From the NCBI GenBank assembly GCA_038061755.1, contig JBBTYN010000002.1, positions 79,312 to 143,311 of the forward strand: DNA of 64,000 bases, in the 5' to 3' direction. Within the stretch, counting starts at the first letter, position 1, and each line of letters opens with the position of its first letter. This document shows, one piece after another, positions 7,795 through 37,899 of the stretch. A program made the position numbers and the translations under genes. This stretch comes from Patescibacteria group bacterium (GTDB taxonomy: Bacteria; Patescibacteriota; Minisyncoccia; Phycocordibacterales; UBA9973). The notes beneath the pieces were generated by a model that saw only the letters and a program-made list of their open reading frames with translations, was not told the origin of the DNA and did not search any database.

Positions 7795-10161
7795 ATGTTT
7801 TACAAACACAACGATAACTACACAGTCGAGAGCGTCACTTCTGGCCATCCGGACAAAATCTGTGACCAGATATCAGATGCTATTTTAGATGCATATTTAA
7901 CTTTGGACCCAAAGAGTCGTGTCGCCGTGGAGACCTTTGGCGGTCATGGCAAGCTTGTAATTGGTGGAGAAGTCACCTCGACAGGAAAAGTGGACTACAT
8001 AAAAATCGCCCGTGATGTTTATCGCAAAATTGGTTACACAGATGAGCTCGAAATCTCTGCACACATCGTCACTCAATCCCCCGACATCGCTCAGGGAGTA
8101 GATACAGGCGGAGCTGGAGACCAAGGATGCCTCAAAAAAGGTACCCTTGTAAGAACTAAAAGAGGGTTAATCGCAATACAAGAAATTGTAAAGGGAGATT
8201 ATGTTGCTACCCCATACGGTTGGCGTAAAGTACTCAGAGCTATGATGACCGGTAGAAAAAAAATTGTAGAAGTAGTTTCCGCCGACGGAATGGCATTAGA
8301 ATGCACACCAGATCACAGAATATTGTGCTACGACCGCGAAGGAGCCACGTATTGGAAAGAAGCAGCTTCATTAGAAAAAGGTGATTTTATGTGTACGCTT
8401 AAACCGCAGGAAATTGATGCTGATTTTTTTGTGCAGTCACAAATCCCTCGTGAAAAATTTTTTAGCAAATACAACCATAAAATTTTCGGGCCAGAAGAAT
8501 TGATTTTTAATCATGACGTCGCCTACATTGCGGGAGAATTAATAGGAGATGGATATGTTGCGAGTCCTTATTTAATGGATTTAGCGTTTGGTAATAATCG
8601 TGAGCACGCCGTTATGGTACAAGATGTTTGTAATAAATTTATGCCAGAACAATGGAGGCTAATCGATAATGGTAGTAATGTATGTCTAAAAATTGATTCC
8701 GTTTTGGTTAGAAAACATTTCGAAAATTTTGGTATTACATATGCGAAAGCGCCCGAAAAAGAAACCCCACGAGCTGTCTTCGTTTCCCCGCCAGAAGTTA
8801 TAAAAGGTTATTTAAGAGGACTTTTTGATAGCGATGGAACTATTATTATAAATACGGGGAGAAAAAAAGAAAACATCAGGATTCGTCTTGGTTCTTCATC
8901 TCTTCGACTATTGCGCGAAACCCAATTATTGTTGCATGATTTTGGAATAAAATCTACAATCATTCTTAACACAGCCAAGGGAATGCCAGTTGGAAAAAAG
9001 GGGAAGTTTGGGAAAATATATTATTCACAGCACCAACACTACGTGCTTTCCTTGGTAGGTTTTGAAAGTTATCAAAAATTCTGCAAAGAAATCAGTTTTA
9101 GTGATAAGAAAAAACAGGAACGTGCCAAGATGTATTTAGAAAAATGTAAAACACAGCCAAAAAATTCACGTGGCGTATACTTAATACCTCACCCCAAAAA
9201 AGACGAACTTATAGAAGAATCAAGACTTGGCTGTGAATTCCCCTTTGCAGTTAGCGTGTTTAAAAACATAGTAGACAGAAAAGAAATTACAGAAGTTTAC
9301 GATCTTGAAATAGAAGGAATACATATGTTTTCAGCAAATGGAATTATAGTTCATAATTCCATGTACGGATTCGCTACGGATGAGACACCTGAATTTTTAC
9401 CCAAGGGCGTAGTCCTCGCACATAAACTCGCAAAACGTTTAGAAGAATTAAGGAACAATGGAGAAATCAAATGGTTACGCCCCGATGGCAAAACACAAGT
9501 CACTTATACGAATGGTGAACTGAATACCGTATTAGTAAGTACGCAACATACACCAGAAGTCACACCAGAAGAAATTAAAAAAGAAATTACTGAAAAAATT
9601 ATTCTGCCTTTACTCACCGACAAGGAAAAAAGTTTGGCCTGTCCCGTTAGAGATCGCGAGGGCTCGCAGCGTGTTCCCAGCTCTAATGGGATAAAGATTC
9701 TGGTAAACCCCACGGGAAAATTTATCCAAGGTGGTTTCGAAGCAGATACAGGATTAACTGGCCGCAAAATAATGGTAGATACTTATGGTGGACTCATCCC
9801 CCACGGCGGTGGATGTTTCTCAGGAAAAGATGCCACAAAGGTGGACCGCTCAGGCGCATATATGGCTCGCTACGTGGCGAAAAGCCTCGTTGCAGGTGGT
9901 TATGGTAAAGAAGTGCTCGTATCTGTAGCCTATGCTATCGGTATGGCTGAACCACTGATGATAGAAGCGATTAACGAAAAAGGGAAAGATTTATCAAAAA
10001 TCGTCCGCCAAAATTTTGATTTTAAACCGCTTGCAATAATAAAAAAACTGAAACTTCAAAAGCCAATCTACGAGCAAACTGCCACCTATGGTCATTTCGG
10101 CAAAAAAAATCTGCCGTGGGAAAAAATTGAAAAGATAAAAACTACTGCTTTTTTTGGCTAG
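7795..10161 (+). CDS. metK: S-adenosylmethionine synthetase interrupted by an intein
   Basis: Exteins have GHPDKICDQISDAILDA, GGAGDQG | SMYGFATDETPE, NPTGKFIQGG, GLTGRKIMVDTYGG and GAYMARYVAKS. A 410-aa insertion separates GDQG from MYGF. Confidence 0.9.
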   Translation: MFYKHNDNYTVESVTSGHPDKICDQISDAILDAYLTLDPKSRVAVETFGGHGKLVIGGEVTSTGKVDYIKIARDVYRKIGYTDELEISAHIVTQSPDIAQGVDTGGAGDQGCLKKGTLVRTKRGLIAIQEIVKGDYVATPYGWRKVLRAMMTGRKKIVEVVSADGMALECTPDHRILCYDREGATYWKEAASLEKGDFMCTLKPQEIDADFFVQSQIPREKFFSKYNHKIFGPEELIFNHDVAYIAGELIGDGYVASPYLMDLAFGNNREHAVMVQDVCNKFMPEQWRLIDNGSNVCLKIDSVLVRKHFENFGITYAKAPEKETPRAVFVSPPEVIKGYLRGLFDSDGTIIINTGRKKENIRIRLGSSSLRLLRETQLLLHDFGIKSTIILNTAKGMPVGKKGKFGKIYYSQHQHYVLSLVGFESYQKFCKEISFSDKKKQERAKMYLEKCKTQPKNSRGVYLIPHPKKDELIEESRLGCEFPFAVSVFKNIVDRKEITEVYDLEIEGIHMFSANGIIVHNSMYGFATDETPEFLPKGVVLAHKLAKRLEELRNNGEIKWLRPDGKTQVTYTNGELNTVLVSTQHTPEVTPEEIKKEITEKIILPLLTDKEKSLACPVRDREGSQRVPSSNGIKILVNPTGKFIQGGFEADTGLTGRKIMVDTYGGLIPHGGGCFSGKDATKVDRSGAYMARYVAKSLVAGGYGKEVLVSVAYAIGMAEPLMIEAINEKGKDLSKIVRQNFDFKPLAIIKKLKLQKPIYEQTATYGHFGKKNLPWEKIEKIKTTAFFG
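8128..9357 (+). mobile_element. Intein with LAGLIDADG homing-endonuclease domain, inserted in metK after the GAGDQG motif
   Basis: It begins with Cys (CLKKGTLV...) and ends ...GIIVHN, followed by Ser. The two LAGLIDADG motifs are YIAGELIGDGYV and LRGLFDSDGTII. Length is 1230 nt (410 aa), and the flanking extein sequence is contiguous MetK. Confidence 0.8.
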
Positions 10162-18716: not shown

Positions 18717-18827
18717 GCGGTCATATTTGGTGGTCTTTAGACATAAATGATTAATGGTCATATTTGGTGGTTTTTAGACATAGATAATTTGCGGTCATAT
18801 TTGGTGGTCTTTGTACATACATAAAAA
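18717..18827 (+). repeat. Three degenerate tandem repeats of about 37 bp, each a partial copy of the 5' half of the downstream tRNA-Gly
   Basis: The units are gcggtcatatttggtggtctttagacataaatgattaat, ggtcatatttggtggtttttagacatagataattt and gcggtcatatttggtggtctttgtacatacataaaaa. Each begins with the tRNA 5' end GCGGTCAT and resembles its D-arm. Confidence 0.6.
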
Positions 18828-18898
18828 GCGGTCATGGTTTAGTGGTAGAACACGTCCTTGCCAAGGATGAGACGAGAGTTCGATTCTCTCTGGCCGCA
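18828..18898 (+). tRNA. tRNA-Gly (anticodon GCC)
   Basis: Cloverleaf with acceptor GCGGTCA/TGGCCGC (one G-U pair), D-loop AGTGGTA, anticodon loop TTGCCAA and T-loop TTCGATT. Confidence 0.8.
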
Positions 18899-19138
18899 CA
18901 AAAAAATGATGTCCATTAATTTTTGCTTATTTAATAAGGATTTTATTGTAACTGTGGATAACTATGTTAGTACTGTTCATAAAGGACATTATTAAAAACT
19001 GTCTTTTAATATCATTTTTAATTAAAATAGCTTGTAAAATAAGAATATATCAATAAAAGACATTAAAATTTAATAATAAGTTTCACGTGAAACATAAATA
19101 GACCATGTGCCATGTGAAACTATAAATTATATAGATAA

Positions 19139-23281: not shown

Positions 23282-25465
23282 GTGGATACAAACGAACAGC
23301 ATCTAAAGGGTCTAAATAGTGAACAAAAAAGGGCGGCGCTTCATATGAAGGGACCACTTTTAATTATTGCCGGAGCAGGCGCTGGAAAAACAAAAACAAT
23401 TACGCATCGAATTGTAAATCTGATAAAACAGGGAGTGTCTCCTGATAAAATTTTGGCAGTAACATTCACCAATAAAGCTGCCAAAGAAATGCGAGAGAGA
23501 ATTATCGGTGCAATATCATTATATGATAGTAAAAATGCAGGACAAAAAATAAACAGAGAAGTGGATTTGCTTTCGCGGGGTGTCTCGCAGGCTGACGAGC
23601 CGAGAGGCAGCGCTCCATCAGCAGATGGAGACAGCGACCCCGTGAAAGTAGAATCCATTTCTCTGTCCGAAATACCTTTTGTGTCTACTTTTCACTCTCT
23701 TGGAGTTTATATAATAAAAGAAAATGCCAAACTATTAGGATTAACACGATATTTTACTATTTTAGACGAAGGAGATGCGACAACTCTTATTAAAAATATT
23801 TTAAAAGAGCTCAGCATAGATCCTAAACAATATGATCCAAAAAAAATAAAAAATATCATCTCGCGAGAAAAAGGAAAATTTATGCATTTGGCAGACTATG
23901 CAGAGAGGGAAGAAGGTGGCGCAAGTGCTATAGGGAAAATAGTAGCGCAAGTTTGGAATTTATATGAAAAACAAAAAATGAAAGAAAATTCGCTGGATTT
24001 TGATGATTTACTTTTAAAAGCAACAAAATTACTAAAAGAAAATGAGAAAATCAGAAAAATTTATCAAAACAAATGGGAATATATACACGTGGATGAATAT
24101 CAAGACACAAATGAAGTACAATATCTAATGTCAAAATTACTAACGAGTGCTGAAAGAAATATTTGCGTGGTTGGGGACGCTGACCAGAATATTTATTCTT
24201 GGCGTGGAGCCAATTTAAAAAACATTTTAAGTTTTGAAAAAGATTATCCAAATGCAAAAATAATCTTATTGGAACAAAATTACCGGTCTACAAAAAATAT
24301 TTTGGAGGCGGCAAATGAGGTAATTAAAAAGAATAAATATAGACCAGATAAAAATTTATTTACAAAAAATATAGAAGGTGAAAAAATAGGACTATATGAA
24401 TCCCTAGACGAAACTGACGAAGCTGAATTCGTCGCTACAAAAATTCTAGAAATCACGGACAATTTCGGAAAGGATGTTGTTTTGAAAAGCATTGCGCAGG
24501 CTGACGAGCCGAGCATAGCAAATTTTCAGCAGAAAATTATGTGCGGTTTTCAAAATAATATCCTTTCGGAAATTGCTATCCTTTACCGCGCGAATTTCCA
24601 ATCTCGCGCGCTTGAAGAAGCGATGCTCAGATACAATATCCCTTATCAAGTTTTAGGTATTAAATTTTTTGAAAGAAAAGAAATCAAAGACACTCTCGCA
24701 TATTTACGCGCAGCATTAAATCCTGATAGTTTGTCTGATATAAAAAGAATAATAAATTTCCCTGCCCGAGGTATCGGAAAAGTGACTTTGCTGAAAATTT
24801 TTGCTAATCAAAAAGAAACTTTACCAATAAAAATGCAAATAAAAATTAATAATTTTTATAAAACCTTAGAAGAAATAAAAGAAAAAATTACGAACACAAA
24901 AGTTTCGGAAGTAATAAAATTTGTAATAAAAAAATCTGGAATTGAAACAGAACTTTCTTCTGGCACCGAAGAAGACATAGAAAGATTAGAAAACATCAAA
25001 GAACTTGCCACCCTAGCGCTCAAATATGACAATCTAGAAAATGGAACAGGAGTAGAAAAACTTTTAGAAGACGCCTCTCTTGTCTCAGATCAAGATTCTT
25101 TAATGATAAATGTCTCGACCAAAGTCGGGACCCCGACAGGGGTCGGGGGGGTAAAATTAATGACTGTACATGCATCAAAAGGACTTGAGTTTGAATATGT
25201 TTTTATTACAGGATTAGAAGATGGACTTTTTCCACACCAAAGGCAAAATGAAAGCAAAACAAATGAAGATAGTGAGGAAGAACGAAGGCTTTTCTATGTA
25301 GCGCTTACTCGCGCTCGGAGAAAATTATTTTTATCCTTTGCAAATTTCCGCACCATTTTTGGCTCTCGTAACATAAATACACCATCAGAATTTATCAGCG
25401 ATATTCCTGCAGATTTATTAAAAAAAGAAGGTGAAATTAGCGGAATAAAGACAATTTACCTATAA
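23282..25465 (+). CDS. uvrD: ATP-dependent DNA helicase UvrD/PcrA (carrying three GC-rich in-frame insertions)
   Basis: Motifs GAGAGKTKTITHRI, TFTNKAAKEMRER, TFHS, VDEYQDTN, GDADQNIYSWRGA, QNYRST, LYRANFQSR, GIKFFERKEIKD and VHASKGLEF. Confidence 0.9.
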   Translation: MDTNEQHLKGLNSEQKRAALHMKGPLLIIAGAGAGKTKTITHRIVNLIKQGVSPDKILAVTFTNKAAKEMRERIIGAISLYDSKNAGQKINREVDLLSRGVSQADEPRGSAPSADGDSDPVKVESISLSEIPFVSTFHSLGVYIIKENAKLLGLTRYFTILDEGDATTLIKNILKELSIDPKQYDPKKIKNIISREKGKFMHLADYAEREEGGASAIGKIVAQVWNLYEKQKMKENSLDFDDLLLKATKLLKENEKIRKIYQNKWEYIHVDEYQDTNEVQYLMSKLLTSAERNICVVGDADQNIYSWRGANLKNILSFEKDYPNAKIILLEQNYRSTKNILEAANEVIKKNKYRPDKNLFTKNIEGEKIGLYESLDETDEAEFVATKILEITDNFGKDVVLKSIAQADEPSIANFQQKIMCGFQNNILSEIAILYRANFQSRALEEAMLRYNIPYQVLGIKFFERKEIKDTLAYLRAALNPDSLSDIKRIINFPARGIGKVTLLKIFANQKETLPIKMQIKINNFYKTLEEIKEKITNTKVSEVIKFVIKKSGIETELSSGTEEDIERLENIKELATLALKYDNLENGTGVEKLLEDASLVSDQDSLMINVSTKVGTPTGVGGVKLMTVHASKGLEFEYVFITGLEDGLFPHQRQNESKTNEDSEEERRLFYVALTRARRKLFLSFANFRTIFGSRNINTPSEFISDIPADLLKKEGEISGIKTIYL
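23574..23644. repeat. GC-rich palindromic insertion inside the uvrD CDS, sharing the 19-bp core CGCAGGCTGACGAGCCGAG with the 92-bp element
   Basis: cgcggggtgtctcGCAGGCTGACGAGCCGAGaggcagcgctccatcagcagatggagacagcgaccccgtg has terminal inverted repeats CGCGGGGTGTCTC / GAGACAGCGACCCCGTG. It encodes an extra ...SRGVSQADEPRGSAPSADGDSDPV... segment before the TFHS motif. Confidence 0.55.
24473..24564. repeat. 92-bp MITE-like palindromic element inserted in frame in uvrD (copy A); identical to copy B in ksgA
   Basis: gatgttgttttgaaaagcattgcgcaggctgacgagccgagcatagcaaattttcagcagaaaattatgtgcggttttcaaaataatatcct has TIRs AGGATGTTGTTTTGAAAAGC... / ...GGTTTTCAAAATAATATCCT and is flanked by the direct repeat TTCGGAAA. 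It encodes VVLKSIAQADEPSIANFQQKIMCGFQNNIL. Confidence 0.7.
25112..25150. repeat. GC-rich palindromic patch inside uvrD (ACCCCGAC...GTCGGGG)
   Basis: gtctcgaccaaagtcgggaccccgacaggggtcggggggg encodes STKVGTPTGVGG just before the conserved LMTVHASKGLEF motif. GC content is far above the local background. Confidence 0.4.
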
Positions 25466-25474
25466 TTAAGAAAA

Positions 25475-27016
25475 ATGAATATTTTTAACAAGCAAACATT
25501 ATATATATTAAGTTCATTCCTTGCTGGTTTTTCTGTAATGACCATAGAACTTATTTCAGGAAGAATAGTAGCTCCAATAATAGGGTCTTCGGTTTTTACT
25601 TGGACATCTGTAATAGGAATAACTTTATTAGGACTCTCCATCGGTAGTTATGTTGGTGGCCAAATTGCAGATAAAACTGAAGGAAATAAATCACTTCCTC
25701 TAGTGTTCCTTTTATCATCAATCTTAGTTTCATTAATTCCAGTATTGGCAGCAAATACAAATTTTATTACAGATTCTTCCGATTCAATCTTGAAATTAAA
25801 TTTATATCTATCAATTTATTTATTCTTACTTCCAACATTGGCAATAGGACTTATTCAACCAATAATTCTTAAAAAATTTGCTAATGATTTTTCAAAAATT
25901 GGCAGTGAATATGGCATATTATCGTTTGCCTGGTCATCTGGTGGCATATTCGGTGTATTTTTAACAGGATTTTTTTTCATATCAAATATTGGAAGCATGG
26001 AAACAATTTGGTTAATGTCTCTAATTCTATTCTTAGTAGGAGGAATTTTGGCAATAAAAGATAAAAAAATAATTTTACTTTTCATAATAACAATGCTTGT
26101 TGTGCCAAATTTTCTTTATTTTACACAACAAAAAATACTAAATCCAAAAATAATATTTCAAAAAGAAACTGATTACTATAATGCTAGAGTTATTGATGCA
26201 TATCTTCCCGGATATGGAGATTCCCGAATACTCAATTTAGATTTTGATTTTCATAGTATAGAAACCAAAAAAGTGGTTGAGTATTACCCAGAGATATATC
26301 CAATTTTTGCTAATTTAAAAACAAATATAAAAAATATTTTAGTAATAGGTGCTGGGGCATATACTCTACCAAAACATTTTAAAAATTATTATAAAGATGC
26401 AGATGTTTCTGTCGTTGAGCTAGATCCAGAAATAATTAATATAGGTAACGATTTTTTTGATCTTAAAAAATATAATATAAAAACAATAGTTGGAGACGCA
26501 AAAATTGTAATAAATAAAAATAAAGAAAAATATGATGTAATTTTTGGTGATGCTTATAATTCTTTTATATCTGTGCCTTGGTATCTCTTAACAGAAGAAT
26601 GGAACAACGAGATTAAAGAAAAATTAAATGAAAATGGAATTTATGCTATAAATTTTATAGGCTCGTTGTCTGGATCAAAATCAGAATTCACAAATAGTGT
26701 ATTGAGCACATTTAAAATAAGTTTCCCCAATTTTTATATTTTTGCATTTGGAAAAAATCCTGAATATACACAAAGCATAACATTGGTAGGTGTTAATGGA
26801 AGACTCCCAATAAGCGAAGGAGAGCTTTCCAAAAAATTATTGATAGGAGAAAATAGTTTTTTAGCAAATAAAATTATTCCTGTTATGTATTTTAAAGATT
26901 CAACTTCAATAATTTTAACAGATAATTTTTCACCAGTAGAAAAATTGATGGAATCAACAATAAAAAGTTATTTCCCAAAAAATTTATTCGAGTTTAAGAG
27001 TATTTTGTCAATATGA
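25475..27016 (+). CDS. Polytopic membrane protein fused to a spermidine-synthase-like (aminopropyltransferase-fold) domain
   Basis: About 7 N-terminal TM helices, then ILVIGAGAYTLPKHF...VSVVELDPEII...YDVIFGDAY (SAM-dependent spermidine-synthase-like motifs). Confidence 0.7.
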   Translation: MNIFNKQTLYILSSFLAGFSVMTIELISGRIVAPIIGSSVFTWTSVIGITLLGLSIGSYVGGQIADKTEGNKSLPLVFLLSSILVSLIPVLAANTNFITDSSDSILKLNLYLSIYLFLLPTLAIGLIQPIILKKFANDFSKIGSEYGILSFAWSSGGIFGVFLTGFFFISNIGSMETIWLMSLILFLVGGILAIKDKKIILLFIITMLVVPNFLYFTQQKILNPKIIFQKETDYYNARVIDAYLPGYGDSRILNLDFDFHSIETKKVVEYYPEIYPIFANLKTNIKNILVIGAGAYTLPKHFKNYYKDADVSVVELDPEIINIGNDFFDLKKYNIKTIVGDAKIVINKNKEKYDVIFGDAYNSFISVPWYLLTEEWNNEIKEKLNENGIYAINFIGSLSGSKSEFTNSVLSTFKISFPNFYIFAFGKNPEYTQSITLVGVNGRLPISEGELSKKLLIGENSFLANKIIPVMYFKDSTSIILTDNFSPVEKLMESTIKSYFPKNLFEFKSILSI

Positions 27017-27897
27017 AGGCAAAAAAATCTCTCGGACAAAATTTCTTAAAGTCAGAAATAGCTCTTCGTAAAATTATTGAAGCGGGAGAAATAAAATCTA
27101 CTGATGTAATTTTAGAAATAGGGCCAGGCAAGGGAGCGTTAACCTCTAAGCTTCTAGAAAAATCTGGAATAGTTATCGCTGTTGAAAAAGATCGTGAACT
27201 TTTTGAATTTTTAAAAATAAAATTTGCAGAAGCAATTACAGAAAAAAAATTAATTTTAATAAATGATGATATTCTAAAATTTATAGAGGATGTTGTTTTG
27301 AAAAGCATTGCGCAGGCTGACGAGCCGAGCATAGCAAATTTTCAGCAGAAAATTATGTGCGGTTTTCAAAATAATATCCTCAATAAATTTAACTACAAAA
27401 TCATTGCCAATATTCCTTACAACATTACCGGCGCAATTTTAAAAAAGTTTTTAACAGCAGAAAATCAACCCGAAAGTATGATATTAATGGTTCAGCATGA
27501 AGTAGCCAAAAGAATCATAGGAAGGGGAAGCAACCCTTCGACTCCGCTCAGGGTAAAGGAAAGTATTCTCTCTATTTCAGTCAAGGCTTACGGGGAGGCA
27601 AAGATGATAATGAAGGTTGATAAAAGATATTTCTCACCAAGTCCTAAAGTTGATTCGGCTATTATCGCCATAAAAAATATTTCTAGGAAGAATTTTGAAG
27701 GTGTCAAACACCCGATGTTTGACAATTTTGAAGAGAAATTCTGGGAAATAGTAAAAACTGGCTTTGCACATAAGAGAAAAAAGCTTTCTTCAAACTTAAA
27801 AGTTTTAAAATTAGAAAAAACCGACCTCCTAGAAAAGTTGGGAAACAAAAGAGCGGAAGATTTAACTCTTTCGGACTGGCTTGCATTAACTAAATAG
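27013..27897 (+). CDS. ksgA: 16S rRNA (adenine1518/1519-N6)-dimethyltransferase KsgA/RsmA (carrying an in-frame 92-bp element)
   Basis: LGQNFL, EIGPGKGALT, NIPYNITGAIL and F.P.PKVDSAII motifs. There is an extra 30-aa block between DILKFIE and NKFNYKIIANIPYN. Confidence 0.85.
   Translation: MKAKKSLGQNFLKSEIALRKIIEAGEIKSTDVILEIGPGKGALTSKLLEKSGIVIAVEKDRELFEFLKIKFAEAITEKKLILINDDILKFIEDVVLKSIAQADEPSIANFQQKIMCGFQNNILNKFNYKIIANIPYNITGAILKKFLTAENQPESMILMVQHEVAKRIIGRGSNPSTPLRVKESILSISVKAYGEAKMIMKVDKRYFSPSPKVDSAIIAIKNISRKNFEGVKHPMFDNFEEKFWEIVKTGFAHKRKKLSSNLKVLKLEKTDLLEKLGNKRAEDLTLSDWLALTK
27289..27380. repeat. 92-bp MITE-like palindromic element inserted in frame in ksgA (copy B)
   Basis: Identical over 92 bp to 24473-24564. 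The terminal inverted repeats extend to GAGGAT...ATCCTC. The reverse-frame ORFs 24280..24516 and 26994..27332 both start MLGSSACAMLFKTT because of this repeat. Confidence 0.7.
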
Positions 27898-33242: not shown

Positions 33243-33716
33243 ATGACGGACAAATTAAAACAAACAATTAAAGACGAAGTGGAAAAATTACCAAAAGAAA
33301 ATCAAGAAGTGATTAATAATTTTGGTTGGGAAAAAATTACGGAAGAAGTTGGAAAGAAGTTTTTACTTTCGGATAATGAAATAAATGATTTTCAAGTAGA
33401 AACTTTAATTATTTTAGTTGGATTAGAAGATATTGATTTTTACGCGAGTAATATAGAAAACAATGTCGGCACCAGCAAGGATGAAGCGAAAAAAATTACT
33501 GATGAAGTAATTCAAAAAATATTTACCCCAATTAATGACATCCTAGTAGAAAACATTAAAAAAAGCGACAAGCTAAAAAATACAAACGTAGAACAAAATC
33601 TTAATTTTATTCTTTCCGGTGGAGATTATACGGCCTTTTTGGATGTCCCACGCCTTATTGATGAGGGAGCAGGAGAAAATGAAACAGTTTTACCGGTCTT
33701 TTTTATTAAAAAATAA
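33243..33716 (+). CDS. Hypothetical acidic protein (paralog of the next gene)
   Basis: Shares with 33731..34306 an N-terminal LPxExQxxIN motif and a similar layout. The start is taken at the internal Met (MTDKLKQ). Confidence 0.45.
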   Translation: MTDKLKQTIKDEVEKLPKENQEVINNFGWEKITEEVGKKFLLSDNEINDFQVETLIILVGLEDIDFYASNIENNVGTSKDEAKKITDEVIQKIFTPINDILVENIKKSDKLKNTNVEQNLNFILSGGDYTAFLDVPRLIDEGAGENETVLPVFFIKK

Positions 33717-33730
33717 TATATAATAACAAC

Positions 33731-34306
33731 ATGGAAGACACAACAGATTTATTACAAATAAAAATTGAGAAGGCAAAAATGCAATTGCCAGAAGAAACCC
33801 AAAACGCAATCAATGCTGTTGATTATAAAGCGGTTATTTTAGAAATGAGAAAAAAAAAAGGATATAGTTTTGAACAATTAGGAGACCTAGAAACTGAAAC
33901 AGAATTATTGCTTTGCGGGCTTCTTAGTCCAGAAAATTATCCAAAAGAATTAGGAAACAGGATGCATCTTTCAGGTAATGAAGTTAATGAATTAGTAAAA
34001 GAAATGAATAATCGTGTTTTTGCAAAAATAAAAGAAAACTTGGTAAAAAGGACAGAAGAAAAAAAAGAAGAAAATGATGATATGCAAATATTACATTCTG
34101 CTGGAATTGAGATTATTCCTGAAAAAAAAGAATTAACAACACCCACGCCTCCAATCTTGGCACAAAAATTATCCGGTTATGTTAAAAATGAAGTAGTGGA
34201 AACAGAACATTCTCTAGAAAATATCACAAAAATAAGTATGCCAACTCCACCAATTACTAAAACAAGCAAAATAACTATAGATCCATATAGAGAAATTCCT
34301 GAATAA
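33731..34306 (+). CDS. Hypothetical acidic protein (paralog of the previous gene)
   Basis: MEDTTDLLQIKIEKAKMQLPEETQNAINAV... No recognisable family. Confidence 0.45.
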   Translation: MEDTTDLLQIKIEKAKMQLPEETQNAINAVDYKAVILEMRKKKGYSFEQLGDLETETELLLCGLLSPENYPKELGNRMHLSGNEVNELVKEMNNRVFAKIKENLVKRTEEKKEENDDMQILHSAGIEIIPEKKELTTPTPPILAQKLSGYVKNEVVETEHSLENITKISMPTPPITKTSKITIDPYREIPE

Positions 34307-34312
34307 CAAAGC

Positions 34313-34391
34313 AATTACGAATTATCAATTACGAATTACGAATTAAAAAAACAAAAAAATTAAAAATCAGTAATTACGAATTACGAATTTG
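34313..34391 (+). repeat. Array of AATTACG heptamer repeats (direct orientation) upstream of the four-helix-bundle gene
   Basis: The array reads aattacgaattatcaattacgaattacgaattaaaaaa...agtaattacgaattacgaattt. Confidence 0.7.
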
Positions 34392-34751
34392 AAAGAAAAT
34401 ATTATACAACAAAAAAGTTATGTATTTGCAATAAAAATTATTGAATTATATAAATACTTAATTGGAACAAAAAAAGAATTTATTTTATCAAAACAACTTT
34501 TGAGAAGTGGAACGTCAATAGGAGCAAACATAGAAGAAGCATTAGGTGGTCAATCAAGAAAAGATTTTATCTCAAAATTATCTATAGCCTATAAAGAAGC
34601 TCGAGAAACAAAATACTGGCTCTCTTTATTAAGGGAAGCAAAATATATGACTCAAGAAGAATTGAATCCTGTTTTTGATAATTGTGAGGAAATATTAAAA
34701 ATAATAGGTAAAATTCAAAAAACATCAAAAGAAAATGGGGTTAATTCGTAA
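34389..34751 (+). CDS. Four-helix-bundle protein (TIGR02436 / 23S rRNA IVS protein / DGR Avd-like family)
   Basis: 120 aa with ...SKQLLRSGTSIGANIEEALGGQSRKDFISKLSIAYKEARETKYWLSLL..., matching the sQl.RsatSI.aNIaEG...s.kdF...l.iA..e..Et..wl.l motif. TTG start. The gene lies inside heptamer-repeat arms. Confidence 0.75.
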   Translation: MKENIIQQKSYVFAIKIIELYKYLIGTKKEFILSKQLLRSGTSIGANIEEALGGQSRKDFISKLSIAYKEARETKYWLSLLREAKYMTQEELNPVFDNCEEILKIIGKIQKTSKENGVNS

Positions 34752-34790
34752 TTGATTATATAATGTTCTATAATGTAGTAGTGGGTTGCT

Positions 34791-34826
34791 AATTCGTAAT
34801 TCGTAATTCGTAATTTATAATTGATT
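34791..34826 (+). repeat. Inverted-orientation heptamer array (AATTCGT x3) plus conserved leader aatttataattgattcatATG
   Basis: Reverse complement of the upstream AATTACG array. Together the arrays form the arms of a hairpin whose loop is the 4HB gene. A second partial copy (aattcgtaattgat) overlaps the 4HB stop codon at 34743-34756. Confidence 0.7.
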
Positions 34827-34829
34827 CAT

Positions 34830-35273
34830 ATGCAGTTTAAAGTTCCACAATTTTTAGACATAGAAGACAAAATATTCGGCCCTTTCACTTTTAGGGAATT
34901 TGTTTATTTGGCTGGTGGAGCAGGCTTGTGTTTTATTCTTTATAAATTGCTAGGTCTTATTTTAGGAGCCATACCAATTTTAATTGTGGCAGGATTTTCG
35001 CTCGCTCTTACTTTTTATAAACCAAACAATAAACCATTCCTTAACATAATTGAATCTAGTTTTAAATACTTTACCAAAAACAAACTTTATATTTGGAAAA
35101 AAGGCAAAAGCCACGCTTCAATGGACGGTGTGCGACATGATTTCACTAAATCAGATATAAACAAAGTTCAAATAATACATTCTAGTAATTTACAATTAAA
35201 TGGAAGCAAGTTACGGGACTTAGCTTGGAGTTTGGATGTATTAGATTTAAGTAAACAACAGGGAAAAAATTAA
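34830..35273 (+). CDS. PrgI/VirB3-like small membrane protein
   Basis: MQFKVPQFLDIEDKIFGPFTFREFVYLAGGAGLCFILYKLL..., a two-TM hairpin architecture typical of the PrgI family, immediately upstream of the VirB4 genes. The ATG start is at 34830. Confidence 0.5.
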   Translation: MQFKVPQFLDIEDKIFGPFTFREFVYLAGGAGLCFILYKLLGLILGAIPILIVAGFSLALTFYKPNNKPFLNIIESSFKYFTKNKLYIWKKGKSHASMDGVRHDFTKSDINKVQIIHSSNLQLNGSKLRDLAWSLDVLDLSKQQGKN

Positions 35274-35282
35274 GAATTAGCA

Positions 35283-35378
35283 ATTACGAATTACGAATGA
35301 AAAATACAGATTACAAATTAAAAGATTATGAGTTGCGAATTAAATTCGTAATTCGCAATTCGTAATTTAAAATTGATT
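35283..35378 (+). repeat. Intergenic hairpin made of heptamer repeats (direct AATTACG arm, 43-nt loop, inverted AATTCGT arm) plus the conserved leader before the next ATG
   Basis: aattacgaattacgaatg...(loop)...aattcgtaattcgcaattcgtaatttaaaattgattcaaATG. This is the same architecture as the arms flanking the 4HB gene, but with an empty loop. Confidence 0.7.
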
Positions 35379-35381
35379 CAA

Positions 35382-36020
35382 ATGGCCTTAAAAGCAAAAG
35401 CAACTCAAGAATTTGTGCCAATCAAGGAAGTTCGCGATGGAATAGTCGTGCTAAAAAACGACGAATTACGGGCTATCGTGCTGGCTAATTCTGTAAATCT
35501 ATCTCTAAAATCTTCTGATGAACAACAAGCAACAATAATGCAATTTCAAAATTTTCTTAATACCTTAGATTTTTCTGTGCAAATATCAATCCAATCAAGA
35601 AGGCTAAACATTAGGCCTTATCTTTTGCTTTTGGAAGACAGAATAAAGGTTCAAAATGAACCCCTTTTAAAATTACAAACTAGAGAATATATAGAATTTA
35701 TTAAAAATTTTACTGATTCAGTGGCAATAATGACAAAAAACTTTTTTGTAGTAGTTCCATACACCCATACTACTTTAAAATCAGACTCTGGAATACTGGA
35801 TAAAATATTTTCAAGAAAAAATAAAGAGGAGATAAAAGTTGCAAAACAAATAGATTTTGAAGAAAAAAGGTCTCAATTGGAAGAAAGAGTAGCTGTTATT
35901 CAGCAAGGACTCTCCCGTTGTGGTATAAATTCAGCTCAACTTGGTACTGAAGAAGTAGTGGAAGTATTTTATAAAGTTTTCAACCCGGGGGAAATAGAAG
36001 GAAAAATTAAATTAGAATAA
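35382..36020 (+). CDS. VirB4/TrbE N-terminal-domain protein (split from the ATPase)
   Basis: EFVPIKEVRDGIVVLKNDELRAIVLANSVNLSLKSSDEQQATIMQFQNFLNTLDFSVQI resembles the VirB4 N-domain. The ORF ends 28 nt before the ATPase ORF. Confidence 0.5.
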   Translation: MALKAKATQEFVPIKEVRDGIVVLKNDELRAIVLANSVNLSLKSSDEQQATIMQFQNFLNTLDFSVQISIQSRRLNIRPYLLLLEDRIKVQNEPLLKLQTREYIEFIKNFTDSVAIMTKNFFVVVPYTHTTLKSDSGILDKIFSRKNKEEIKVAKQIDFEEKRSQLEERVAVIQQGLSRCGINSAQLGTEEVVEVFYKVFNPGEIEGKIKLE

Positions 36021-36048
36021 TCTACGAGCTTAACGCCACAAAAATTAT

Positions 36049-37899
36049 ATGGATTTTTTTAAAAAATTATTTGGAAAAGAAAAAAAGACTGAAAGTGAAG
36101 AAATACGAACTTCTGTTTTGGCTGTCTTGCCAGAAAAAATTTACGAATCTGCAAATTTGGAACTTCAAGATATCATTGCCCCATCAGCCTTAAAAATCGA
36201 CCCGAAATCTATAAACCTAGGTAGCAAAATAGCCCGCACTTTTTTTATAATATCTTATCCAAGGTTTTTAACAGATAATTGGTTTTCTCCAATAATTAAT
36301 TTAGATAAAATTTTTGATATTTCAATATTCGTTCACCCCATAGACACTTCTCTTGTTCTGCGACAATTTCAAAAAAAAGTTGCCGAAGTCCAAAGTCAAA
36401 TAAGTGTTCGAGAATCAAAAGGAATGGTGCGTGACCCAATGTTGGACACTGCCTATGAAGACTTAGAAGGGCTTCGTAATAATTTAATTCAAGCACAAGA
36501 AAAAATGTTTGATGTCGGTATTTATATCACAATTTATGCAGATAATGAATTGGAATTATATAAAATAGAAAATGAAATAAAATCAATGCTTGAATCAAAG
36601 CTAATATATATCAAACCGGCTCTTTTTCAGCAAGAAGAAGGTTTTAAAAGTGTCATTCCAATAGAAACAGACCTATTAAACATCCACCAAAAATTAAATT
36701 CTGAGCCCCTTTCTAGCGTTTTTCCATTTATTTCTTCTGATCTTACTTCAGACAAAGGAATACTTTATGGCATTAATAGACATAACTCGTCCCTCGTTAT
36801 CTTCGATAGATTCAGCTTGGAAAATTATAACTCAGTAACATTTGCTAAATCAGGTTCTGGAAAATCTTATGCGACAAAATTAGAAATTCTAAGATCCTTA
36901 ATGTTTGATACTGATGTTATCGTAATAGATCCAGAAAGAGAATATGAATTCTTGGCTGAAGCTGTCGGTGGACGATATTTTAACATTTCGCTCTCTTCCG
37001 ATCATCACTTGAATCCTTTTGACTTGCCGATACCTCGCGAAGACGAAACAGCTGAAGATGTTTTACGTTCAAATATCATTAATTTAGTAGGGCTTTTTAG
37101 ACTAATGCTAGGTGGGCTCACTCCAGAAGAAGATTCGATGGTAGACCGAGCTATTTCAGAAACTTATGCAATGAAAGATATAACGCCAGAATCAGATTTT
37201 TCAAATATTGAACCACCTCTTCTTTCAGATTTTGAAATGGTGCTCGGAGGAATGGAAGGAAGTGATTCAGTCATTGCTAGATTAGCAAAATACACCAGAG
37301 GTTCTTGGGCAACTTTTTTAAACAGACCGTCTAACGTGGATATTAATAAAAAATTCGTGGTATTTTCTGTTCGTGATATGGAAGACGAATTAAAACCAGT
37401 AGCAATGTATATTATTATGCATTATATTTGGAATGCAATAAGAAAGAATCTTAAAAAAAGACTTCTAGTGGTGGATGAAGCTTGGTGGATGATGAAATCA
37501 GAAGATACAGCCTCGTTCTTATACTCTATTGCAAAAAGAGGCAGAAAATATTACTTAGGTCTTTCCACTATCACTCAAGATGCGGCAGACTTTATGAAAT
37601 CTCCCTATGGAGTGCCAATAATTACCAATTCCTCCATTCAACTTCTTTTAAAACAATCACCTACCACAATTGATATTTTGCAAAAAACTTTTAATCTTAC
37701 TGATGAAGAAAAGTATTTACTTTTGGAGTCTGGATTAGGAGAGGGTATATTTTTCGCCGGATTAAAACATGTTGCTATAAAAATAGTTTCTTCTTATACG
37801 GAAGACCAAATCATTACCTCTGATCCTTCACAACTATTATTAAACAAAAAGGCCAAAGAGGAACAAGAAGCAAAAGCGACAGCGACAGCAGGGAAGTAG
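36049..37899 (+). CDS. VirB4/TraC/TrbE-family type IV secretion ATPase (ATPase domain)
   Basis: Walker A AKSGSGKSYATK, Walker B LLVVDEAWWMM and GRKYYLGLSTITQ. The size and motifs match the VirB4 C-terminal two thirds. Confidence 0.8.
   Translation: MDFFKKLFGKEKKTESEEIRTSVLAVLPEKIYESANLELQDIIAPSALKIDPKSINLGSKIARTFFIISYPRFLTDNWFSPIINLDKIFDISIFVHPIDTSLVLRQFQKKVAEVQSQISVRESKGMVRDPMLDTAYEDLEGLRNNLIQAQEKMFDVGIYITIYADNELELYKIENEIKSMLESKLIYIKPALFQQEEGFKSVIPIETDLLNIHQKLNSEPLSSVFPFISSDLTSDKGILYGINRHNSSLVIFDRFSLENYNSVTFAKSGSGKSYATKLEILRSLMFDTDVIVIDPEREYEFLAEAVGGRYFNISLSSDHHLNPFDLPIPREDETAEDVLRSNIINLVGLFRLMLGGLTPEEDSMVDRAISETYAMKDITPESDFSNIEPPLLSDFEMVLGGMEGSDSVIARLAKYTRGSWATFLNRPSNVDINKKFVVFSVRDMEDELKPVAMYIIMHYIWNAIRKNLKKRLLVVDEAWWMMKSEDTASFLYSIAKRGRKYYLGLSTITQDAADFMKSPYGVPIITNSSIQLLLKQSPTTIDILQKTFNLTDEEKYLLLESGLGEGIFFAGLKHVAIKIVSSYTEDQIITSDPSQLLLNKKAKEEQEAKATATAGK

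Follow-up and report, generated by a model that had tools for sequence, protein, structure and literature searches.

The window analysed here is a stretch of 64,000 nucleotides from a Patescibacteria group bacterium (contig JBBTYN010000002.1, positions 79,312 to 143,311 of the forward strand). It represents chromosomal DNA of a low-GC, Parcubacteria-like organism of the candidate phyla radiation (CPR). A co-directional operon at ~28.9-40.7 kb resembles a type IV secretion system (T4SS) and comprises a PrgI-like gene, a T4SS pilin and a VirB4 that is split into a TraC-like N part and a P-loop part. Within this operon, a small gene for a four-helix-bundle (4HB) protein follows a 191-aa gene that ends at 34306 and precedes the PrgI-like gene, whose ATG is at 34830. 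The open reading frame (ORF) encodes 120 aa of the family PF05635/TIGR02436 (34389-34751, + strand, TTG start) and stands between a forward (AATTACG)n and a reverse (AATTCGT)n array. Gene and arrays are called the cassette in the following. The next spacer (35274-35381) holds a gene-free counterpart, in which ~44 nt of degenerate heptamers part a forward from a reverse array. The features are:

34309-34347, + strand: outer left arm, forward heptamer array AATTACG AATTATC AATTACG AATTACG AATTAAA; 37 nt, 86% complementary to 34790-34826
34348-34369, + strand: A-rich linker between the forward array blocks
34370-34392, + strand: inner left arm, forward array GTAATTACGAATTACGAATTTG; its last unit holds the TTG start (34389-34391)
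34389-34751, + strand: 4HB gene, 120 aa, A type, isoelectric point (pI) 9.3; TIGR02436 E 1.5e-33, PF05635 E 1.7e-29
34743-34754, + strand: inner right arm, reverse unit AATTCGTAATTG, coding for N-S at the C-terminus and containing the stop TAA (34749-34751)
34790-34826, + strand: outer right arm, reverse array, three times TAATTCG, then AATTTAT AATTGAT
34830-35273, + strand: PrgI/VirB3-like T4SS gene of the host, downstream of the cassette; PF12666 E 1.4e-8, ATG as in orthologues
35268-35298, + strand: forward array of the gene-free element, AATTAAG AATTAGC AATTACG AATTACG; 90% identical to 34313-34353
35299-35342, + strand: degenerate units AATGAAA AATACAG ATTACAA ATTAAAAG ATTATGA GTTGCGA; they take up the 'loop' between the two gene-free arrays
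35343-35377, + strand: reverse array of the gene-free element, AATTCGT AATTCGC AATTCGT AATTTAA AATTGAT; 87% identical to 34791-34842

The arrays fill the junctions to the host genes almost completely. The outer left arm starts 3 nt past the stop of the 191-aa gene, and the outer right arm ends 3 nt short of the PrgI-like ATG. An initial annotation, made from the letters of the window, had described one upstream array at 34313-34391. Its direct AATTACG units are present, but the array is not continuous: two blocks (34313-34347 and 34372-34392) are parted by an A-rich linker of 24 nt. The reverse complement proposed for the downstream side was recovered both at 34743-34754 and at 34790-34826, and the stop codon lies, as described, within the former reverse unit. 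Matches to the 14-mer AATTACGAATTACG with at most one mismatch number seven in the window, against 0.03 expected, and all seven fall into the two spacers.

In the gene-free element, the first unit of the forward array contains the PrgI stop codon, and 4 nt separate the end of the reverse array from the ATG (35382) of the gene for the TraC-like N-terminal part of VirB4. The initial annotation saw here the same two arms around an empty loop of 43 nt. The arms are indeed the same, but the loop is not empty; it is a decayed heptamer repeat, and its degenerate units are conserved at the matching site of three related loci (L001, L138, L158).

The reading frames of the arrays deserve an observation of their own. 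With a unit of 7 nt, coprime to 3, the reverse array (AATTCGT)n offers a TAA in all three frames within 21 nt (array 34790-34826). The forward array (34313-34347) has no stop in any frame, and the common variant AATTATG gives an ATG in every frame. Judged from these letters, the arrays could act as frame-independent signals for translation stop and start at the cassette borders.

Predicted RNA stem and protein family

The initial annotation proposed that the arms pair, with the gene as the loop. Folding of 34300-34835 places a stem of 34312-34345 with 34790-34826 in both the minimum free energy (MFE) structure and the centroid (z = -4.2; none of 100 shuffles was as good). Cofolding yielded -33.7 kcal/mol for the outer arms, -12.8 kcal/mol for the inner ones (region 34370-34392 with 34738-34762) and -45.7 kcal/mol for both. 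The predicted stem is hence stable. The placement in an mRNA operon is likewise confirmed: the flanking ORFs are the 191-aa and the PrgI-like genes, no rRNA gene was detected in the window, and an Rfam scan of the whole window returned tRNAs only. Around the two spacers (34200-35500), no Rfam model came near significance (best E 0.083, far under the gathering score). A promoter and terminator scan of 33600-36100 revealed no enrichment and nothing at the arrays, which is compatible with or without an internal promoter.

The 4HB protein matches TIGR02436 with 115.3 bits (cut-off 24; profile positions 1-108 of 109) and PF05635 with 102.6 bits (cut-off 33.8), in agreement with the earlier assignment to the family of intervening-sequence (IVS) and Avd proteins. 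The motif R-x3-S-x3-N-x2-E is conserved in the family (PMC3936711) and present as LRSGTSIGANIEE with R39, S43, N47 and E50. In the family alignment A1, R39, N47 and E50 are invariant and S43 is nearly so. PDB entry 2RLD, which has five chains, is homologous (E 9e-44), and the match to 2GSC is weak; the window protein probably forms a pentamer, as do 2RLD, 2GSC and Avd. Profile searches matched PF05635/TIGR02436 only, with no transposase and no recognisable catalytic domain. PADLOC and PHROGs gave no meaningful match, and phage records only two weak ones, so there is no sign of phage carriage in these collections.

The kinship with Avd raises the question of a remnant or satellite of a diversity-generating retroelement (DGR), in which the 4HB protein acts as Avd. 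CPR genomes carry many DGRs. PF05635 is the superfamily of Avd, which among Pfam families is the most frequent neighbour of DGR reverse transcriptases. Avd is a basic four-helix-bundle pentamer with an RNA stem-loop as its binding partner, and in the DGR RNA, distal segments from upstream and downstream pair around the template. In the window, however, the RNA loop is the ORF of the protein itself. Pfam scans of 28 large ORFs (~7.8-49.3 kb) contained no reverse transcriptase, and the direct repeats of at least 45 nt no pair resembling a template and a variable repeat. The bAvd profile PF22296 scored 16.9 bits against a cut-off of 40, and no reverse transcriptase stood beside the gene in the related loci inspected. 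A DGR origin, already dismissed in the initial annotation, is very improbable.

Occupancy of orthologous operon junctions

A metagenome scan with the adjacent TraC-like protein retrieved 80 orthologous clusters (80-96% identical; single loci are labelled L001 etc.). The spacer between the upstream gene and PrgI, termed site 1, was assessable in 55 of them. It measures at most 40 nt, often 1-5 nt, in 39 of the 55 Parcubacteria clusters. A PF05635 gene occupies site 1 in seven clusters, the window included: five carry the A type, one a B type and one a C type. One further cluster holds a GIY-YIG ORF, and ORF-less inserts of 55-174 nt fill the spacer in the remaining eight. Tight spacers also prevail at sites 2 and 3. 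In L122, the closest relative (TraC-like protein 96% identical), all three spacers harbor different elements. Since 39 of 55 junctions are tight, the gene is not a conserved component of these clusters. The cassette with its arrays is inserted at a normally tight operon junction and is not a T4SS component.

The initial annotation regarded the two spacers as a cargo-carrying and a cargo-free form of one element. Opposite occupancy is found in L035, where an A-type gene resides in site 2 and site 1 holds a bare hairpin, AATTAAGAATTACGAATT-T-AATTCGTAATTGG..., with the forward array abutting the reverse array, as in the ORF-less form of L187. From this reciprocity it follows that full and gene-free forms are two states of one element, in which the ORF sits exactly at the dyad.

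Three subfamilies share the T4SS site of the window gene. The B type (L130, L202-L208) carries (CTAGGCN)n upstream and (NGCCTAG)n downstream, the C type (L147) (ATAAAGT)n and (ACTTTAT)n, respectively. Identity at the site is 27.5% between A and B and 36.6% between B and C; between A and C no similarity is detectable. The adjacent TraC-like gene is 84-91% identical. In 12 loci (the window, L001, L011, L033, L034, L171, L181, L184, L130, L202, L203, L147), the ORF-less hairpins of neighbouring spacers belong to the same class as the resident gene, and site 3 of L035 is the sole exception.

The recurrence of three 4HB subfamilies directly upstream of the PrgI-like gene, and the conservation of the B type there across lineages, could also be expected of a genuine accessory subunit or chaperone of the T4SS, with incidental flanking repeats. 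Such a protein would not be absent from most orthologous clusters, nor sit in a different spacer in L035. Its subfamilies would hardly be 27-37% identical at a site whose flanking genes share 84-91%. In addition, close homologues with the same repeats reside in non-secretion operons of other phyla. A T4SS subunit is an improbable explanation.

A second class of hairpin-bounded cassette was observed at the same junctions. Site 1 of L138 (1685-1939) harbors an 84-aa GIY-YIG gene (PF01541, E 8.8e-18), bracketed by CCCGTTAGAGAT... and ...ATCTCTAACGGG. ORF-less kin with related arms of ~23 nt (CCCGTTAGAAGCCGCGGTCGCAG ... CCGCGACCTGCTTCTAACGGG) occupy site 2 of L122, L133, L179 and L191 and site 3 of L149 and L174. 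Both GIY-YIG and the IVS protein (IVP) have been reported as small ORFs in CPR rRNA insertions.

Cassettes and heptamers in other phyla

Protein searches retrieved thousands of relatives, and Flavobacterium proteins are 65-68% identical to the CPR one. A scan with one genome per species yielded 80 loci with 58-88% identity, spread over at least 12 phyla (Patescibacteria, Bacteroidota, KSB1, Desulfobacterota, Kiritimatiellota, Ignavibacteria, Cyanobacteria, Planctomycetota, Proteobacteria, Gemmatimonadota, Bdellovibrionota, Acidobacteriota, Firmicutes, Chloroflexota, Verrucomicrobiota); the comparison set overall comprised about 200 related loci. Nearly all of the 80 loci have AATTACG-type units upstream in sense and the reverse complement downstream, with wrong-orientation counts near zero. 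Copies of the arrays outside the window, as sought by the initial annotation, are consequently numerous. The genomic contexts are unrelated. AATTACG-type units upstream and CGTAATT-type units downstream flank the gene between a beta-lactamase-fold and an enolase-superfamily gene (Flavobacterium), in a dnaK-dnaJ operon and between cas1 and cas2; restriction-modification (R-M) loci, accB and DISARM loci are further contexts.

The upstream neighbour lies on the same strand in 78 of the 80 loci, at a median gap of ~50 nt, which suggests that read-through transcription is needed for expression of the gene. The repeat units usually contain the start and the stop codon; the frequent C-terminus 'RNS*' corresponds to CGT AAT TCG TAA. 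Among 99 distinct cassettes, period-7 arrays were present upstream in 81 and downstream in 84; periods of 5, 6, 8 and 9 amounted to 7, 12, 2 and 0, respectively. Empty alleles in Nostoc contain no arrays at all, hence the arrays travel with the gene; the junctions of filled and empty alleles were read by eye, the MAFFT alignment being unreliable in its centre.

Array copy number differs between near-identical loci, and the genome is AT-rich. Both are compatible with slippage-prone simple repeats in a coincidental position. Against chance stand the seven 14-mer matches confined to two spacers, the enrichment of period 7 alone, the strict orientation and the covariation of the arms described below. 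As the unit is also kept across phyla despite saturated synonymous sites, this explanation is effectively refuted.

Several observations concern the fate and distribution of the cassettes. In L100 (1467-1830), a decayed A-type 4HB gene with internal stops adjoins an intact copy and has kept arms of AATTATG/AAGTTAT type; cassettes can thus degrade in place. In L045 (Pontiella) and L060 (a betaproteobacterium), at ~2400-2960, an HsdS-like helix is coded on both sides of an A-type cassette ('...VAEIEGYQEE' upstream, 'IVAEIEAEQALVAANRELI...' downstream), and the upstream frame runs into the heptamer array. There, the cassette may divide the specificity gene of a type I R-M system in two. AATTCGT/AATTACG arrays abound on some cyanobacterial plasmids (H31, H29), at 38 places of a 69-kb plasmid of Dolichospermum and at 26 of an 805-kb plasmid of Nostoc flagelliforme. 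On the Planktothrix plasmid L116 (1860-2040), a second hairpin, without an ORF, comes after the 4HB gene, in the interval from DISARM drmD to an MmeI-type gene.

The two arms of a cassette change together. In 53 of 69 cassettes, the downstream consensus, once reverse-complemented, is identical to the upstream one or a single base off. Among those with an upstream unit other than AATTACG, ten exact arm matches were counted against 1.2 expected, a number that was reached in none of 10000 shuffles. In the A-type clade, variants are altered on both sides (AATTAGG/CCTAATT, AATTACT/AGTAATT, AGTTACG/CGTAACT, AATTAAA/TTTAATT). Further 4HB genes carry other units: AATTTAG/CTAAATT in a Bdellovibrio paralogue, AGGTCGG/CCGACCT in Nostoc punctiforme, CCAGTGA/TCACTGG in Euhalothece, TAACTGG/TCACTGG in L118 and CTCTCCG-type units in Treponema. 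The Planktothrix cassette (L116), located between drmD and the MmeI-type gene, combines AATCCCC and AATCGTA upstream with TACGATT and TTGGATT downstream; AATCCCC is the reverse complement of GGGGATT. N. flagelliforme possesses the AATTACG unit in opposite polarity. Single-linkage clustering of the proteins at 55% identity lumped almost all cassettes and was too coarse to resolve co-evolution among A-type cassettes. The idea that a palindromic 4-nt core (AATT, CTAG) is a general rule fails for AGGTCGG and GGGAATC.

Two published arrays fit into this series. In Coxiella, two to three tandem GACAGAT units precede the S23p ORF of the 23S rRNA IVS, with an RNase III site at the first unit (PMC4990558). 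A supplementary table of the Xanthomonas repeat survey lists a GGGAATC array over the start codon of XCC0516 (2GSC), next to bccP. Different 4HB subfamilies carry different heptamers, and the arms match each other. This suggests, from the loci compared, that PF05635 genes as a rule move together with matching 7-base repeats of their own.

A-type genes of related Parcubacteria show dN/dS values of 0.07-0.26 at dS values of 0.6-1.4, which indicates a functional protein and old copies. Purifying selection on the protein is strong. One and the same repeat unit is found in all of these loci and in other phyla, even though synonymous sites are near saturation. Complementarity alone would permit drift; a unit that is constant within a protein subfamily and changes between subfamilies points to a sequence that is itself read by something. 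The co-inherited 4HB protein is the obvious candidate reader.

Recognition of the repeat by the protein would equally serve a regulator. In this serious alternative, the 4HB protein is domesticated and beneficial to the host, and the arrays at the junctions form its regulon, as DNA operators or mRNA leaders that adjust the transcription or translation of the operon or the stability of its mRNA. In the window and in many loci, the arrays run up to a start codon or across it, and workers on Nostoc, Geobacter and Beggiatoa independently proposed a regulatory protein that binds such arrays. The matching of protein and repeat classes, the purifying selection and the stable retention of the B type at one T4SS site also agree with a regulator. 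Nevertheless, the cassette is sporadic among near-identical operons, as the 39 tight junctions among 55 and its absence from the 96%-identical L122 demonstrate. The 4HB gene itself always lies within the arrays. The same architecture occurs within rRNA genes, where a regulon makes little sense, the contexts are mutually unrelated (cas1-cas2, dnaK, accB, R-M, DISARM), and decayed copies such as that in L100 exist. On balance, a host regulator appears unlikely, though less so than the other rivals.

Interpretation, known systems and meaning

The preferred reading, with a probability of about 0.7, is a selfish gene cassette of the IVS type that has an operon's mRNA, and not an rRNA gene, as its home. 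The cassette turns over rapidly and has ORF-less derivatives. Its unit would consist of a forward (AATTACG)n array, the 4HB ORF and a reverse (AATTCGT)n array, with no visible promoter and with expression by read-through of the operon. In the transcript, the arms would pair, loop out the ORF and bring the stop and the start of the host genes close together. RNase III then probably cuts the stem, as at the heptamer stem of the Coxiella 23S IVS, which would free the 4HB mRNA; the insertion would be nearly harmless and the host cistrons would remain usable. The basic 4HB protein (pI 9.3) probably binds its cognate heptamer stem or array, by analogy to the binding of an RNA stem-loop by the Avd of DGRs. 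Such binding could maintain or spread full and ORF-less copies, in a manner resembling the service of REP-associated tyrosine transposases (RAYTs) to REP doublets forming hairpins (REPINs). ORF-less hairpins could arise from full cassettes by microhomology deletion between AATT cores, which both arrays share in direct orientation every 7 nt. For movement to new sites, recombination at the arrays and an RNA intermediate are candidates.

Several results weigh against this reading. Heptamer binding has not been reported in the literature for any member of the family outside DGRs. A helical bundle of 120 aa with no known catalytic activity can have only an indirect role in movement. No target-site duplication or clean insertion junction was recognised when the window was compared with tight orthologous spacers, or filled with empty Nostoc alleles, although the repeats blur these junctions. 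The filled Nostoc allele also lacks ~190 nt that are present in the empty alleles, and so it is not a clean insertion. B-type genes, 77-91% identical, all reside at one T4SS site in several Parcubacteria lineages, which fits long vertical inheritance and possibly a function at the level of the host. On the RNA side, the stems are AU-rich and the inner one is weak (-12.8 kcal/mol). In the MFE structure of the gene-free spacer (z = -4.0), the reverse arm pairs with the adjacent degenerate units 35323-35342; pairing of the distal forward and reverse arms is still possible there at -21.8 kcal/mol. Mismatches between the arms, counted on the sense strand as a test for selection at the RNA level, comprised 46 G-U-compatible and 47 A-C-type cases. 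Without an excess of G-U, the complementarity fits a cause at the DNA level equally well. Pairing in vivo and cleavage of the stem by RNase III are predictions of the model. RNase III excision has been shown only for the IVSs of Coxiella, Leptospira and Salmonella (PMC4990558) and is predicted for the mRNA copies.

The cassette resembles the 23S rRNA IVS with an S23p/IVP ORF known from Leptospira and Coxiella burnetii. Both share the PF05635 protein and an ORF within stem-forming terminal inverted repeats, and ORF-less versions are known for 23S rRNA IVSs as well. In Coxiella, the stem by the ORF start is made of tandem heptamers in a strain-dependent number, the first of which is the site of RNase III cleavage (PMC4990558). 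The window element, in contrast, is located between T4SS protein genes, uses the heptamer AATTACG and abuts the stop and start codons of its host genes.

REPINs and RAYTs offer a second comparison. There, as with the cassette, a gene is flanked by inverted repeats, many gene-free doublets populate operon spacers (the window has one full and one gene-free copy, and relatives have numerous gene-free doublets), each protein subfamily has one repeat class, and the hairpins could affect mRNA. RAYTs, however, are DNA-cleaving transposases of the HUH/Y1 type, whereas the 4HB protein has no recognisable catalytic domain. The window repeats are tandem 7-nt arrays and not single palindromes, and the cassette is strictly co-oriented with the upstream gene. 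Integron cassettes and pairs of MITEs (miniature inverted-repeat transposable elements) with autonomous transposons likewise exhibit ORFs without visible promoter, co-directional behind a host promoter, hairpin repeats at the boundary, and full and ORF-less forms. In contrast to these, no integrase, attC, transposase or target-site duplication was found, and the ORF is enclosed at either end by arrays.

Catalogues of tandem heptamer repeats go back to ~1990 for cyanobacteria and later took in Xanthomonas, Geobacter, Beggiatoa and others; the origin of these repeats is unexplained. These simple sequence repeats include the short tandemly repeated repetitive (STRR) sequences and GGGGATT of cyanobacteria, GGGAATC of Xanthomonas, TAACTGA of Beggiatoa and the paired heptanucleotide sites of Geobacter. 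Like the arrays of the window, they are intergenic tandem 7-nt units, often end at start codons, often form convergent pairs and occur in the same phyla, and identical or nearly identical units flank 4HB genes in L116, in L118 and at XCC0516. The respective papers treat the repeats as G-quadruplex motifs or regulator sites and call for a 'yet to be identified' interacting protein; the 4HB/IVP family is not mentioned. The IVS/S23p protein has been left without an assigned function for 30 years (PMC4990558). A search of 8 million full texts tied heptamer arrays to the 4HB family nowhere beyond the description of the Coxiella IVS, and no paper contained the AATTACG 14-mers.

Further insertions and repeats occur elsewhere in the window, which also carries dnaA, dnaN, a penicillin-binding protein, polynucleotide phosphorylase, an intein-containing MetK, YidC and KsgA. 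The intein in this S-adenosylmethionine synthetase gene (7795-10161) has a LAGLIDADG endonuclease domain and is another selfish insertion in the segment. A perfect direct repeat of 94 nt with terminal inverted repeats (24471-24564 and 27287-27380) sits within two unrelated ORFs, a UvrD-like helicase (23282-25465) and KsgA/RrnaAD (27013-27897). Both frames are intact, each protein has ~30-36 extra residues in Pfam alignments, and the repeat resembles the in-frame palindromic elements of Rickettsia. At 18717-18835, three tandem copies of 37 nt repeat the 5' end of the next gene, tRNA-Gly(GCC) at 18828-18899 (GCGGTCAT...); past integration or recombination at the tRNA may have left them behind.

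Occurrence of the 4HB family in rRNA IVSs, including CPR rRNA insertions, and in cas loci, as well as its kinship with Avd, were known before. New are the IVS-type element in mRNA operons with cognate heptamer arrays and the link of heptamer arrays to a cognate protein gene. A broader generalisation is put forward tentatively, at somewhat short of even odds: bacterial heptamer repeats may have their missing cognate partners in the PF05635 proteins, each subfamily reading its own 7-nt unit, and the cassettes may be a widespread, so far unrecognised class of hairpin-bounded selfish elements. It would cover STRR, GGGGATT, the Xanthomonas GGGAATC, TAACTGA-type repeats and the AATTACG of Bacteroidota and CPR. 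The rRNA IVSs would then be a special case that landed in rRNA, and full and ORF-less copies would populate operon junctions in the way of RAYTs and REPINs. The origin of the heptamer repeats and the function of the IVS protein would become one question, as the heptamer changes where the protein changes. The presence of rRNA IVS-type elements in mRNAs of cas, R-M, chaperone and secretion operons bears on the annotation of operons, on the '23S_rRNA_IVP' genes in defence loci and on the tolerance of streamlined CPR genomes towards insertions.

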